DNA of 64,000 bases from Fimbriimonadaceae bacterium (GTDB taxonomy: Bacteria > Armatimonadota > Fimbriimonadia > Fimbriimonadales > Fimbriimonadaceae): assembly GCA_019638675.1 (NCBI GenBank), contig JAHBTE010000001.1:278605-342604 (forward strand), in the 5' to 3' direction. How positions within the stretch are numbered: the first letter of the stretch is position 1; each line of letters opens with the position of its first letter. The position numbers were made by a program, and so were the translations under genes. The notes beneath the pieces are model-generated. The model was not told where the DNA came from. It ran no database searches and was given only the letters and a program-made list of their open reading frames with translations. This document shows, piece after piece, positions 8,377-12,042 of the stretch.

Positions 8377-9963
8377 TTAACTCAAGAAGTCGGCGATCAC
8401 TTGAGGAACTGAGGAATCGAACCCAACAATGTTGAGCGTTCCCGCGTCCCGAGGATCGGCGATCGTGTTTCGAGTTGAAGCCATCGCGACCACGATCAGC
8501 TTCGCATCAATTCCCATCTTGGTTCGGTATTCAGCAATTGCTTCCGCAGGATGCTGAGATCCGTACCAAGTTTCCGAGTCTGTGTAAAGGATAAAGGCAT
8601 CAGCCCGAATCCTCTTGTCAATCGCGTATCGGATTGGCGCGGCGCAGTCGGTTCCTCCACCACCCGTTCGGGCGAGCAAGTTCACGACCTTATCGAGCCT
8701 TTCCTTTCGCGAAATCTTGAGCGGATACACGGAGGTATCGAATGCGAGATGAGTAACCTCACCTTCAGTCGCTTCGTGGATCAGAGCCATAGCTCCCGCT
8801 GCCTTTCGGCAGTCAAGGCCAGCGACTCCCGCCACTTGCGTTCCAACCATTGATCCAGAAACGTCGAGTCCGAGGACAAGTCGCTTTCCGATCGCAGGCG
8901 CAATCTTGAATGAGGCGTAAAACGCTTCATCCAACACATCCAGTATCGCTTGAACTGGCTTCCAGCTTCCGCTTCCTCGAACACCATGCCCGAGAGCGTA
9001 AGTGTTCAAAGCCGCGAGAATCCCGATTGGGTGAATCCGTGCTCGTTCCAATCGACCCGAATCCCGAAGGAGTTCGATAATCTTTTGAACCGAATCCGAA
9101 TTTCCACTCAGCCATCCATGCTTAAGCAAACCAACTTTCGTCATGTTCCCCAAGTTCCGGATAACCGCGGTGAGAGGCATATCCGCCAGCAACGCTTCCC
9201 AAATCGCAGATTCAGTTAGCATTTCCGTAGGAATTGCTTCTCGTGGAAGCCTACTCTTTCGAATCATGTCTGCCGCTTGGTTGACATCCTTGATTTCTCG
9301 CAATGCAAGCATTGCTCGGATCATTTGGAGGTCTCCGGTGACTTCACCATCAACCACCCACTTGAACAAAGCGTTTTGCTCTGCATCGTTAGTTTGCGGG
9401 TGCGACAATCGGAGTAAGTCTCGGTGAGACCACCCTTCTCGTGCTTGGTACTTCACCAACCCGTATTCCAATCGGTCGGTTGGTTGAGCCAAGTACCAGT
9501 TTGCAACCGCCTTCCGCATTCCTCGACCCCAACCTCGAAGCCCGCTGCAAACTTCGGCAAAGGCAAAGAGGTGAGTTCCAGTTCGGCAAACGAGAGGCAA
9601 TGCCTTCAGCGCCGCCGAGCGTGTCTTGTCGTCTCCAAGCGAGGCAGCCAATGCCAACGCGAAGATTGCAGGATCATTTTTTGGTGCGAGGCCGCTTTGG
9701 CTTGCGTCGACAATTCGCTCAACCACTCGCTCTCCATCTTCCTTAATGACCTCGATGACGTTCTTCGCGTGATCCGCCGTGAGCTTTTGGGCTCCGACGT
9801 AAAACGTTCCGTTTTCGCTACCAAGGATCAAGAATCGGTCGAGTAAGTTCCAGCGATCCACACTCCATCCAAATCCGCCGGCATGGTTTCGACGCTGCCC
9901 TGCATAAGGGAGCGGCTTCCGTTGCGACGTCTTGGTTGTGTTCATCAACTTGCTGTACTTCAT
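8377..9963 (-). CDS. rsr: Ro60-related protein Rsr (TROVE domain plus C-terminal vWA domain)
   Basis: 528 aa. N-terminal RRNHAGGFGWSVDRWNLLDRFLILGSENGTFYVGAQKLT is the TROVE signature. C-terminal vWA MIDAS motif LGLDVSGSM. AAGGAGA ribosome-binding site 13 nt upstream of the ATG. Confidence 0.9.
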   Translation of the reverse strand: MKYSKLMNTTKTSQRKPLPYAGQRRNHAGGFGWSVDRWNLLDRFLILGSENGTFYVGAQKLTADHAKNVIEVIKEDGERVVERIVDASQSGLAPKNDPAIFALALAASLGDDKTRSAALKALPLVCRTGTHLFAFAEVCSGLRGWGRGMRKAVANWYLAQPTDRLEYGLVKYQAREGWSHRDLLRLSHPQTNDAEQNALFKWVVDGEVTGDLQMIRAMLALREIKDVNQAADMIRKSRLPREAIPTEMLTESAIWEALLADMPLTAVIRNLGNMTKVGLLKHGWLSGNSDSVQKIIELLRDSGRLERARIHPIGILAALNTYALGHGVRGSGSWKPVQAILDVLDEAFYASFKIAPAIGKRLVLGLDVSGSMVGTQVAGVAGLDCRKAAGAMALIHEATEGEVTHLAFDTSVYPLKISRKERLDKVVNLLARTGGGGTDCAAPIRYAIDKRIRADAFILYTDSETWYGSQHPAEAIAEYRTKMGIDAKLIVVAMASTRNTIADPRDAGTLNIVGFDSSVPQVIADFLS

Positions 9964-10019
9964 TTGTTTTCTTTTCTCCTTGTTTTAGTTTTTTGGTTTA
10001 TGTTTTCTAGTGCAAAAAT

Positions 10020-10129
10020 CTCACAGGCAAGTGGTGCTCTGGCTGTTTTACTAACCATAAGGTTAGCCCCAGGGGTCGAACCTGGCCTGCTTTCGCATAA
10101 CCGATAAGCCACAGGCATCGGCCCGTAAG
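10020..10129 (-). ncRNA. Y-RNA-like module d (Ro-binding helix plus tRNA-like T arm and closed acceptor hairpin)
   Basis: Minus strand. 5' CTTACGGGC[C]GA (10129-10118) pairs with 3' TTGCCTGTGAG (10030-10020), leaving a bulged C. Internal CCAGG-TTCGACC-CCTGG T arm (10085-10069) is followed by hairpin GCTAACC-TTAT-GGTTAGT (10067-10050). Ends 56 nt upstream of the rsr ATG. Confidence 0.7.
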
Positions 10130-10142
10130 AACTCTCTACAAA

Positions 10143-10293
10143 CCTTCAGGCAAAAAGCGAATCTGGGCCAGATTGCCAAAACCGCGCTCTAAACGCCTCA
10201 CCTTTAATTTCAAGATGGCCGGCCTTTCCGCCGAAGTTTCCCAATACAGCAACCCGATGGTGGAGGGATAACCCAATTTCATCGGCCCGAAGG
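10143..10293 (-). ncRNA. Y-RNA-like module c (Ro-binding helix, non-tRNA-like effector domain)
   Basis: Minus strand. 5' CCTTCGGGC[C]GA (10293-10282) pairs with 3' TTGCCTGAAGG (10153-10143): 11 bp with one bulged C. Internal hairpins include AATCTG-GCC-CAGATT and CCGATG...CATCGG. Confidence 0.6.
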
Positions 10294-10309
10294 TCAAAAT
10301 TGTTGTCGT

Positions 10310-10441
10310 GTACGCGGACAAGGGTCGTCCTGGACATGATGCTCTACCACTGAGCTACTAACCGATTACTCGGTTAGGCTGGATTCGAACCAGCGACCAT
10401 CCACTTAGAAGGTGATAATCCAATGACTTCGGCCCGCGCAC
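10310..10441 (-). ncRNA. Y-RNA-like module b (YrlA-type: Ro-binding helix plus permuted tRNA mimic)
   Basis: Minus strand. 5' GTGCGCGGGC[C]GA (10441-10429) pairs with 3' TTGTCCGCGTAC (10321-10310). The interior reads T arm GCTGG-TTCGAAT-CCAGC (10394-10378), closed acceptor CTAACCG-AGTAAT-CGGTTAG (10377-10358), then D arm TA-GCTC-AGTGGTA-GAGC-A (10357-10340). Confidence 0.75.
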
Positions 10442-10457
10442 GTTAAATTGGGGAGGA

Positions 10458-10526
10458 GTACAGGCAAGTGATTGATCTGGCGCTTTTTTCGGTTTTTGAC
10501 GATAAACCAAACCATCCGGCCCGTAC
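10458..10526 (-). ncRNA. Y-RNA-like module a (short, about 69 nt, Ro-binding helix only)
   Basis: Minus strand. 5' GTACGGGC[C]GG (10526-10516) pairs with 3' TTGCCTGTAC (10467-10458), preceded by CAC as in the metazoan CACUUGAC 3' strand. Small A/U-rich interior. Confidence 0.55.
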
Positions 10527-10669
10527 AAAATTGGGTCTAAGGGAAGCGGGTCTGTCAGCCGCACTTCACAACGTCGATTATTAATGTTCTCTAGTGCCTC
10601 CGCCAAAACCCTGGGGAGGGAATCGACGCTGGTCACTCTAATGATTTAGAGTTCATTGCTTGGAGGCGG

Positions 10670-10700
10670 ACTATACCAAGCTTTCTGCGGGGTTTGTCAA
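10670..10700 (-). promoter_or_regulatory. Sigma70-type promoter reading toward the Y-RNA array and rsr
   Basis: Minus strand. Perfect -35 TTGACA (10700-10695), 19-nt spacer, extended -10 TGgTATAGT (10678-10670). Lies 54 nt downstream of the stop (10755) of the preceding same-strand (minus) gene and about 135 nt upstream of module a. Confidence 0.5.
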
Positions 10701-10754
10701 GGGTCTCAAAAAACTTTTAACAAAATGGGACCACTGCTCACCAAGTGGTTAGGT

Positions 10755-11501
10755 TCAATTGAGTTGAGAAATTACTTTTTCAATAAAGTCCCGAAGTTCT
10801 TCCAAATCCGGGCTATGAGCTCCGCCGTTTTGGCGATTGTCCAAGGCGATTTTTACGAGATCATTTTCAGGAAACTCCTGCAAATACCACTCCCCACCCT
10901 GCGACTTTGAGACCAGATCGCCCGTTTGCTTAAACCTGAGCGCGCGGCAAGCGTTGAGGGTGGAGTTTCGGCCAAATGGATCATGGTAAGGGTCACCCAG
11001 CTTTGTAAGGTGCCACGAAATGCCTTTGCGAAGCTCCTCTAAAATCCATTCTTTGGGGATGGGTGCGAAAACTCCTTCAGGGACTGGCCGGAATGAATTG
11101 AATAAATCGATTCCATATCGGCGTGCTATTTCGAAGTGGATCAGTAGTTCGCTGTCTTCACCCGGGCCATGCTCCTCAGTACGCCACGAACCCCCTACTG
11201 AAATTCCAAGCTCATAAGTAGGAATACGTTTTGGTTCCCTGAATTCTCCTGGCTTAACTAAACACAGTTCTATCCCTTTGTAGTGATTAACCCAAACGGA
11301 TAACAGCGATTTTATTCTCTTTTTCATCCACGGTTCAACCGGACACTCAATAACTCCTATCAAGTCAATATCACTCGATTTTGAATGGAAGTCGCCTTGT
11401 GCTATTGACCCGACAACATATAATCCTTCGAGCCAGTCTTCTGTTGCGTTCTTTAATACGATTTGTAGTTCTACTAATGTATCTTTCAGTTCTGAATCCA
11501 T
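10755..11501 (-). CDS. AadA/ANT(3'')(9)-like nucleotidyltransferase with DUF4111-type C-terminal domain
   Basis: The track ORF extends to 11546 (TTG start). The ATG at 11501 (MDSELK) abuts the upstream stop. NTase motif GSIAQGDFHSKSSDIDLIGV. The C-terminal NSTLNACRALRFKQTGDLVSK parallels AadA NVVLTLSRIWYSAVTGKIAPK. Confidence 0.65.
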   Translation of the reverse strand: MDSELKDTLVELQIVLKNATEDWLEGLYVVGSIAQGDFHSKSSDIDLIGVIECPVEPWMKKRIKSLLSVWVNHYKGIELCLVKPGEFREPKRIPTYELGISVGGSWRTEEHGPGEDSELLIHFEIARRYGIDLFNSFRPVPEGVFAPIPKEWILEELRKGISWHLTKLGDPYHDPFGRNSTLNACRALRFKQTGDLVSKSQGGEWYLQEFPENDLVKIALDNRQNGGAHSPDLEELRDFIEKVISQLN

Positions 11502-11502
11502 G

Positions 11503-12042
11503 TTAGTTACAGGCGGGATCCAAGCCTGGATCGGAATAACCAGCAAGAGACACTATATACGTAGTGCCCGTGCTCGGATGCTTTGGCCAATGTAAACTAT
11601 AGTCTTGGACATCGTATACGTGACTGAGATGAACGTCATCCTCAGCATCAAAAAACAGCAGTTCGGGAACAGCATAGTGTGCTGGCTCATTAAAACCACC
11701 TTCTACCCAAACTTTTATTCCATCATAATAGTCTTTTATCTCGGTTTTGCTGAGTGAACTATTCCGCATTTCACCGGCCCAGAACATACAATAGTTGCTT
11801 GATCCCCCTAACACGCCATAAGTGTCAATTACTGTTAATACTTTGTTGGTAGATGGATGGCTCAAATACTTATAGGCATCGCGATACCGTGATTGATGCA
11901 TCATGTTCCTGGCTGCATCAACTGAGCCCAATCCAACGACGCCAATGATTGGAACCATTATGACCCCGGATAGTATTGCTACAGGGATAAGGAAGGAAAT
12001 TGCCAACTCTTTGGCGATATTTACTTTAGTACGTTTAGTCAC
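11503..12042 (-). CDS. Hypothetical membrane-anchored protein
   Basis: 179 aa. Single N-terminal TM segment (LAISFLIPVAILSGVIMVPIIGVVGLG). 4-nt overlap with the upstream gene. Confidence 0.45.
   Translation of the reverse strand: MTKRTKVNIAKELAISFLIPVAILSGVIMVPIIGVVGLGSVDAARNMMHQSRYRDAYKYLSHPSTNKVLTVIDTYGVLGGSSNYCMFWAGEMRNSSLSKTEIKDYYDGIKVWVEGGFNEPAHYAVPELLFFDAEDDVHLSHVYDVQDYSLHWPKHPSTGTTYIVSLAGYSDPGLDPACN

Follow-up and report, generated by a model that had tools for sequence, protein, structure and literature searches.

Four Y RNA candidates in an operon-like array upstream of rsr in a Fimbriimonadaceae genome

What does a 791-nucleotide (nt) gap in front of a Ro60 gene encode? The gap lies in a 64,000-nt stretch of contig JAHBTE010000001.1 (positions 278,605 to 342,604 of the forward strand) from a Fimbriimonadaceae bacterium, which we call the window and number from its first letter. 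On the minus strand, it separates a nucleotidyltransferase-like gene (10755–11546) from rsr, a gene of 528 codons (8377–9963). Y RNAs are thought to decide the activity of the Ro60 ring, and it is already established that bacterial Y RNAs occur beside rsr and that several small RNAs can lie upstream of it, as in Deinococcus. A first-pass annotation of the window read the gap as a set of four Y RNA candidates. By comparison with rsr loci from genomes (75) and metagenomes (77), we find this reading supported, both by the match of one module to the YrlA family and by covarying helices in alignments of rsr loci, and we consider it very probable that the gap encodes four Y RNAs in an operon-like array with rsr, to be released from one precursor.

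Four modules on a common scaffold

The minus strand of the gap resolves into four head-to-tail modules between 10020 and 10526, which we call, from 5′ to 3′, a (69 nt, 10458–10526), b (132 nt, 10310–10441), c (151 nt, 10143–10293), and d (110 nt, 10020–10129), and which are separated by 16, 16, and 13 nt. These positions, lengths, and gaps had been proposed in the first-pass annotation and are borne out by the sequence, and the pairings, bulged C, and outer pairs that it had assigned to the closing helices are all present as well. Modules c and d can be extended by one or two outer pairs each (to 10142–10294, or 153 nt, and to 10018–10130). In all four modules, the terminal helix has a core of GGGC paired with GYCY, a bulged C, and then a G:U and an A:U pair (G:U in a), while the outer pairs are GUAC/GUAC in a, GUGCGC/GCGUAC in b, CCUUC/GAAGG in c, and CUUAC/GUGAG in d. 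Each module has the paired ends with a Ro60-binding sequence that are expected of a Y RNA (GGGC[C]GR/YUUGYC), and in single-sequence folds, the terminal helix closes all four, with z scores of −3.2 (a), −4.1 (b), −0.85 (c), and −2.2 (d). One detail of the earlier description has to be corrected, as the context CACTTG, said to be kept in three modules, is found in a and d only, with CCCTTG in b and TTTTTG in c. The strict motif GNCGAAN0-1G is found in b only (GCCGAAG); c and d read GCCGAUG, and a reads GCCGGAU.

The likeness among the modules extends above the terminal helix. The 5′ strand of all four reads GGGCCGR-N6-UGGNUUAUC and the 3′ strand YUUGYCYG, and in every module, an imperfect upper stem of the form UGG(N)/(N)CCA is followed by UUAUC. 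The spacing of these elements is identical in all four modules: GGGCCGR, six bases, UGG, one base, UUAUC. This upper stem with UUAUC at a fixed distance was not part of the first-pass annotation, nor were the structured leader and the recurring CAAUUU at spacer ends that are described below. The extended motif GGGCCGR-N6-TGGNTTATC (15 bases) occurs exactly four times in the 64 kb, always in the array and on the minus strand; with two mismatches permitted, 0.22 occurrences are expected, and none of 100 shuffles reached four. The bare octamer CGGGCCGR is not significant in the window, with eight found and five expected. Independently, a repeat finder returned a four-copy family of 23-nt direct repeats at 10103, 10267, 10414, and 10501.

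In the comparison loci, we defined modules by sequence motifs only: each has GGGCCGR on its 5′ side and, on its 3′ side, the last TTGYCY that occurs ahead of the following GGGCCGR. Of the 124 modules so defined (75 loci), 60 have an uninterrupted run of four or more outer pairs, compared with about 10 when the 3′ flanks are permuted, and these 60 modules use 33 different flank 4-mers. Thus, the covariation that had been noted among the outer pairs of the four paralogs holds across relatives. In the families of b-, c-, and d-type modules, shifting the partner strand by one to three columns cuts pairing to 30–47%. RNAalifold recovered the lower helix alone, both from 16 short (a-type) modules and from 66 spliced stems. 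The 3′ strand of the upper stem slides by 1–3 nt in register between modules, so column-based counting fails, and we used the duplex energy of matched and mismatched strands for this element. Strands from the same module pair at a mean of −10.7 kcal/mol, against −6.3 for mismatched ones (p ~1e-39, 147 modules). TTATC itself is present in 75 of 147 related modules, and it or a close variant in 112.

The orientation of the modules follows that of rsr. Of the modules placed by a helix finder, 147 share the strand of rsr and 18 do not, and all 84 matches of a covariance model for module c (R1) are on the rsr strand. A generic model of the stem (R2), for which we used 66 spliced stems from relatives other than the closest and none from the window, gave 54 matches, of which all 46 in rsr-oriented bacterial loci are on the rsr strand, the other eight being on viral contigs of arbitrary orientation. 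Moreover, the abundant G:U pairs in the conserved helices fit this strand only. In the window, R2 finds module a (10457–10527) and module d (10020–10129), with an E value of 3e-5 each; it otherwise returns only a fragment of c and does not find b, because inserts of about 100 nt exceed what the model tolerates, and it is not a complete detector.

The gene that follows the array is a true Ro60 ortholog, as the first-pass annotation had supposed. Its product carries the TROVE and Ro60-type vWA domains (Pfam TROVE and vWA_Ro60) and matches both Deinococcus radiodurans Rsr (PDB 2NVO, E 4e-112) and Xenopus laevis Ro60 (PDB 1YVP, E 1e-102), while its closest protein relatives are from metagenome-assembled genomes (MAGs) of Fimbriimonadaceae (Armatimonadota), the nearest being 97% identical. 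A ribosome-binding site, AGGAG, lies at 9976–9980 on the minus strand. Module d is 56 nt from rsr and on the same strand, as is expected of bacterial Y RNAs, which lie on the strand of rsr and within about 4 kb of it.

Outer domains and their conservation

On this common scaffold, the predicted outer domains differ: a hairpin in a, a tRNA mimic of the YrlA type in b, a four-way junction in c, and a T arm with a closed stem in d. Module b is a candidate of the YrlA type. Outward from the Y stem, it shows a V hairpin directly after UUAUC, a T arm (GCUGGUUCGAAUCCAGC), a closed acceptor-like stem of 8 base pairs (bp), and a D arm (GUAGCUCAGUGGUAGAGC), which is the content and order of a YrlA domain. 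A search of Rfam for YrlA, as the first-pass annotation had suggested, aligned b over its full length with RF02553 (41.1 bits, E 1.6e-7), although this is below the gathering score of 69 bits, which the best relative, at 49.1 bits, also does not reach. In an alignment of 11 b-type sequences, the V arm, T arm, and acceptor-like stem covary and the D stem is invariant; 96% of the cells are paired, compensatory changes affect 22 of 40 pairs, and none of 500 shuffles was as good. The Rfam tRNA model gives b 23.5 bits, below its gathering score of 29, and ARAGORN recognized no tRNA, with cloverleaf and anticodon arm, between 9800 and 10900.

The outer domain of module c, a candidate effector domain at 10169–10256 on the minus strand, has no counterpart in Rfam: neither the module at E values up to 10 nor the outer domain in four relatives matched any Rfam family. 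It was delimited by RNAduplex on each sequence, RNAalifold, and pair counts, and it consists of a 7-bp helix (CGGGUUGCU/GGCAAUCUG), an internal loop, and a tight four-way junction that has linkers of 0–2 nt and is closed by a 5-bp helix. The three hairpins of the junction are UUCGGC-GGAAAG-GCCGG, whose loop GGAAAG is conserved, CCAUCUU...AAGGUG, and GCGU-UUAGA-GCGC. In outline, the domain resembles a cloverleaf, but its loops are not tRNA-like. The 7-bp helix varies among relatives in a compensatory manner (GUUGC/GCAAC, GUUAC/GUAAC, GACUG/CAGUC, GGCUGC/GCAGUC, and GGCGUC/GACGUC, by RNAduplex). For the family as a whole (nine sequences), 97% of the cells are paired and 17 of 30 pairs are compensatory; for the outer domain by itself (ten sequences), the values are 95.5% and 18 of 26, with the caveat that the predicted outer helix was used to trim the sequence ends, and in neither case was any of 500 shuffles as good. 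With R1, 12 loci of the closest Rsr clade have a single copy of c each (47–149 bits), and no other locus has one.

The remaining two modules are shorter. Module a is a minimal Y RNA candidate, in which a lower Ro-type helix (GUACGGGC[C]GG/CUUGCCUGUAC) and the upper stem carry an A-rich loop beginning with UUUAUC. It has no Rfam match at E values up to 10, and the corresponding short modules of relatives keep the terminal helix with compensatory changes. Module d combines the Y stem with a small hairpin, a T arm (CCAGGUUCGACCCCUGG), and a 7-bp closed stem (GCUAACC/GGUUAGU), and a D arm is missing. Its family (ten sequences) has 92.5% of the cells paired and 15 of 26 pairs compensatory, again with none of 500 shuffles as good. 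Module d also aligns end to end, if weakly, with RF01656, the nematode stem-bulge RNA family (22.5 bits, E 0.055). The closed stems of b (10345–10364) and d (10051–10067) both read CUAACC...GGUUAG, a likeness that is present in the window and in its nearest relative (locus L001) and not in other relatives, and that hints at a recent exchange or duplication in this lineage.

The array is a trait of the clade. The ten closest loci (L001–L010), all from Fimbriimonadaceae, have four to six modules each within 1.6 kb upstream of rsr, whereas loci from other Armatimonadota, Chloroflexota, and Poribacteria have zero to three under the same strict criteria. The types recur in order, with one or two short hairpins, a YrlA-like module, a module of about 150 nt, and a T-arm module, and the set and order a-b-c-d are conserved beside rsr despite differing flanking genes. 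In the window, these flanks are the nucleotidyltransferase-like gene, which is set apart from the array by a terminator-like hairpin and U run directly after it (10730–10749, minus strand), and, downstream of rsr, an unassigned open reading frame of 244 codons, which is absent from every comparison locus. A search for a conserved partner gene found flanking genes in common with the nearest relative only, so the conserved unit is the array together with rsr. The first-pass annotation had called a four-member array unusual, and this needs to be qualified: four modules exceed the two Y RNAs formally named in each species studied, but D. radiodurans has five small RNAs at the corresponding place, and four to six are the rule in this clade.

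Outside this core of relatives, the arrangement varies. In the cultured Fimbriimonas ginsengisoli Gsoil 348 (locus CP007139.1, about 4276.6–4277.3 kb), at least three modules lie between a LigT-like gene and rsr-RtcB; in this locus (CP007139.1, L153, 1491–5934), a gene for a LigT-type 2′,5′ RNA ligase/phosphoesterase is upstream of the Y RNA region and rsr, and RtcB is downstream of them. In contrast, neither RtcB nor LigT is found among the genes flanking the array and rsr in the window. In a Chthonomonadales MAG (L031, 5633–5777) and a metagenome contig (L088, 2017–2163), short modules are located downstream of rsr, an arrangement that resembles that of Salmonella. In Chloroflexota, 10 to 25 tRNA genes lie directly upstream of rsr, on its strand, in loci L014, L016, L017, L022, L030, and L082 (for example, 1299–3349 in L022 and 1502–3574 in L016), with Y-like modules between the last tRNA and rsr. 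This suggests co-transcription and common processing of these tRNAs with Y RNAs, on a far larger scale than with the single tRNA-Asp of Deinococcus; there is no tRNA gene near the array of the window. A scan of viral contigs with a 14-base core of the scaffold gave more than 120 loci, and a TROVE gene lies beside the motif in 28 of the 120 that were listed. Two putative viral contigs from IMG/VR have six modules (L155, 694–2268, 131 kb) and five modules (L160, 2787–3819, 52 kb) before a Ro60/TROVE gene, so multi-member arrays are not limited to this clade.

A predicted precursor and competing explanations

If the modules are Y RNAs, how would they be made? A promoter-like site, CTTGACA (10701–10695) and TATAGT (10675–10670) with a 19-nt spacer, lies upstream of module a on the minus strand; its CTTGAC does not vary among five aligned relatives and recurs in F. 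ginsengisoli. Between this site and module a, there is a conserved structured leader (10527–10665, minus strand, fold z −2.7), with a hairpin (ACUCUAA/UUAGAGU), a long helix (GCGUCGAUU...AAUCGACGU) that shows some compensatory change, an invariant GCAC, and CAAUUUU at its 3′ end, directly before module a. Loci L001, L002, L003, L004, and L008 keep this leader, in which the Ro-type motif is missing and for which Rfam gives no match at E values up to 10. It may serve as a further, fifth RNA, as a platform for processing, or in regulation. One copy of a 17-nt direct repeat, GCACUAGARAACAUWAA, lies within the leader (10581–10597) and the other between d and the rsr ribosome-binding site (9997–10013), both on the minus strand; the repeat, found in the window and L001 only, may be due to chance or mark a lineage-specific regulatory site.

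The spacers between modules offer a possible means of separating them. Across relatives, they are 9–25 nt long and often end with CAAUUU 0–3 nt before the next module (likewise in L002–L010); in the window, CAAUUU ends are found at 10527–10533, 10442–10457, and 10295–10309, and the spacer between c and d has none. RNase E-type enzymes prefer AU-rich single-stranded sites, and CAAUUU, which resembles such sites, may be a common endonuclease site. The distance from the last module to the rsr start is 35–55 nt in 8 of 14 loci and up to about 200 nt in the others, with the ribosome-binding site inside it, and a comparison of relatives revealed no conserved terminator before that site. A U run after module d was considered as such a terminator and rejected, since relatives do not have it.

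We therefore picture the following pathway, every step of which is a prediction. Transcription would start from one promoter near 10700–10670 and yield a single precursor with the leader, a, b, c, d, and probably rsr, given that spacers of 11–16 nt are too short for separate promoters outside the neighbouring modules and that no conserved terminator precedes rsr. An endonuclease would cut at the AU-rich spacer ends (CAAUUU), and exonucleases would trim back to the terminal helices and free four RNAs. Rsr would bind the common helix of each RNA and protect it, in line with other bacterial Y RNAs, which build up as discrete small RNAs that Rsr binds and stabilizes. Each outer domain, by analogy with Yrn1 and PNPase in D. 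radiodurans, might tether Rsr to a different partner or gate access to its cavity, and the four RNAs might thereby give one protein several specificities. Precedents for a common precursor exist: in Mycobacterium smegmatis, one transcript from upstream of rsr is processed into both YrlA and YrlB, and D. radiodurans makes and processes a polycistronic RNA with Yrn2, tRNA-Asp, and Yrn1 (PMC4201824).

Several points weigh against this picture. No module of the window reaches an Rfam gathering score, with none reached anywhere in the array region. The 19-nt spacer of the promoter candidate is atypical and longer than our promoter scan permits; the scan prefers TTGGCG-18-AATAAT (10606–10577), inside the conserved leader, although we give more weight to the conserved CTTGACA as the likely promoter. 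The U run after d (GAUUUUUG) could end some transcripts before rsr. Module a has a G (GGGCCGG) where metazoan and most bacterial sites have an A, a variant that it has in common with 57 of 147 related modules. The fold energy of module c is no better than that of shuffled sequences, so the case for c comes from the comparative data and not from energy. Finally, even for YrlA, a partner has not been established (PMC4201824).

The alternative that survives best, though we regard it as improbable, is that the four helices are cis-acting sites in the 5′ untranslated region of the rsr mRNA, where excess Rsr would bind and alter its own translation or decay, with no stable trans-acting RNAs being made. 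This would fit the position of the array, which follows a promoter-like site and precedes the ribosome-binding site of rsr with no conserved terminator in the way, and also its constant place directly before rsr in all of the closest loci. Nevertheless, autoregulation does not need four different outer domains that are individually conserved and covarying, one of them a full YrlA mimic; some relatives (L031 and L088) have modules downstream of rsr; and in M. smegmatis, RNAs in a similar position are processed into stable species bound by Rsr. The two roles are compatible with each other.

A second alternative, in which the array descends from tRNA genes, either as a decayed cluster or as tRNA-derived repeats, and has nothing specific to do with Rsr, is very unlikely. 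T-arm sequences in b and d, the D arm and tRNA-model score of b, and the long tRNA arrays before rsr in Chloroflexota would fit it, but ARAGORN detects no tRNA, the score of b is below gathering, and a and c are without tRNA features. What is common to all four modules is a Ro-type helix with UUAUC, which is not a tRNA element, and the arms of b follow the permuted order of YrlA (T, closed stem, D). In addition, conservation, covariation, and purifying selection on structure contradict decay. As for a non-functional tandem duplication or a chance likeness to Y RNA stems, the unenriched octamer and the ordinary fold energy of c might suggest it, but the comparative data effectively refute it, given that the 15-base motif is present four times against 0.22 expected, that it is conserved beside rsr in Armatimonadota and Chloroflexota and, among the viral loci listed, beside a TROVE gene in 28 of 120, and that every helix shows compensatory changes.

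Relation to known Y RNAs

The reading we prefer, an array of four Y RNAs made from one precursor, extends the known one- or two-member sets of bacterial Y RNAs; it is useful to specialists and tractable by experiment, and it is not a new principle. The authors of a 2014 survey predicted more such small RNAs (PMC4201824). We found no published description of conserved arrays of four to six members that all have a Ro-type helix, of a YrlA domain on a two-stranded scaffold with UUAUC, or of the four-way-junction domain of c, although earlier descriptions are not fully excluded, and a full-text literature search linking Armatimonadota to Y RNA returned nothing. To our knowledge, only one partner of a bacterial Y RNA is known, namely PNPase, through Yrn1. 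Four to six candidates with one docking stem and differing outer domains are thus a natural panel for a partner search, in which the junction domain of c would be a ready bait, and the presence of modules in the cultured F. ginsengisoli Gsoil 348 makes experiments feasible. There is also a consequence for annotation, as Rfam models miss the modules of the window at gathering scores and candidate RNAs of this kind therefore go unannotated.

The nearest known relative of module b is YrlA, a family (RF02553) found in Salmonella Typhimurium, M. smegmatis, and more than 250 other species (Chen et al. 2014, PMC4201824). Module b resembles it in the motif GCCGAAG (GNCGAAG), in the V hairpin that starts from UUAU, in the T arm, closed acceptor-like stem, and D arm in YrlA order, and in lying within 4 kb of rsr on the same strand. 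It departs from YrlA in its low score (41 bits, with no relative above 49, against a gathering score of 69) and in being one of four modules instead of one of two. Furthermore, both strands of the Ro60 helix are conserved in b (GGGC[C]GA/CUUGYC), whereas in published YrlA RNAs, the 5′ strand is described as the only one retained (PMC4201824). YrlA RNAs are further characterized by pseudouridine 55 and dihydrouridine modifications and by their recognition by tRNA enzymes (PMC4201824).

In its organization, the array resembles that of Deinococcus. D. radiodurans has five small RNAs upstream of rsr (Yrn1, Yrn2, and RNAs a, b, and d; PMC4201824), clustered as in the window and, in that case, with a polycistronic precursor. 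Yrn1 and Yrn2 keep both strands of the Ro60 helix, and their protected nucleotides G7, G8, C9, G11, and A12 match the GGCCGA of our modules; Yrn1 shows a T arm but no clear D arm, in which it is like module d. Unlike the array of the window, in which the Ro-type helix is present in all four modules and no tRNA gene is interspersed, the Deinococcus cluster has such a helix in two of five RNAs and includes a tRNA gene. The Rfam Deinococcus_Y_RNA model gave no match in the window and a weak match to a d-type module of one relative (24.4 bits, E 3.9).

The scaffold itself has the layout of metazoan Y RNAs and nematode stem-bulge RNAs (RF00019 and RF01656): a bulged-C lower helix and an upper stem with an internal loop between them, and UUAUC at the start of the loop above, a sequence reported to be conserved in vertebrate Y RNAs and stem-bulge RNAs (PMC4726728). 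There are also clear differences. The helix reads GGGCCGA/UUGCC here and GGUCCGA/UUGAC in metazoans; the GUG/CAC pair of the upper stem is absent, d alone having GUG and CAC, which are not paired together; and the outer domains are structured and not pyrimidine-rich loops. Moreover, the predicted transcripts are bacterial and not RNA polymerase III products with oligo-U ends, the only U run being that after d, which is not conserved. RF01656, the nematode family, is regarded as homologous to Y RNAs. In the window, its gathering score of 38 bits is not reached, with 22.5 bits for d as given above, and there is no match to RF00019, while six short modules in other bacterial rsr loci do pass the RF01656 threshold, at 39–47 bits: L017 3159–3233 (46.9), L088 196–260 (45.7), L088 2017–2082 (44.7), L079 370–439 (41.2), L033 3649–3718 (39.8), and L088 109–174 (39.2). 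Automated annotation would, in these cases, put the label of a nematode RNA family on bacterial DNA.

A further parallel is found in Thermus phage phiLo, in which two Y-like RNAs, Yrl1 and Yrl2, lie directly upstream of the Ro60 gene. These RNAs were found by their stem and a CGAA-type motif and bind both the phage Ro60 and the host PNPase (PMC12135203). Compared with the window, the phage has two RNAs instead of four, and no tRNA-like or four-way-junction domain has been described for it (PMC12135203). The phage protein is distant from the Rsr of the window (E 6.5e-9).

These likenesses bear on the ancestry of Y RNAs. YrlA and the more animal-like Deinococcus RNAs have been described as separate lineages that evolved independently (PMC4201824), and a review holds that bacterial Y RNAs are not homologous to vertebrate ones (PMC4726728). 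The finding of a YrlA-type domain on a two-stranded, animal-like helix with UUAUC, beside paralogs that carry other domains, argues instead for a common scaffold, and it bears directly on whether bacterial and animal Y RNAs have a common ancestor. A more far-reaching proposal, which we put forward tentatively and consider somewhat less probable than its converse, is that an ancestral-looking Y RNA scaffold has been kept in Fimbriimonadaceae, in some Chloroflexota, and in Ro60-carrying viral contigs, and that it was multiplied into an operon of four to six adaptor RNAs. If this were true, the presence on one scaffold of the YrlA-type domain of b, the Yrn1-like T arm of d, and the junction domain of c would imply that YrlA and the metazoan-like bacterial lineage have one origin, that bacterial and animal Y RNAs are homologous, and that Rsr is directed to at least one further partner.

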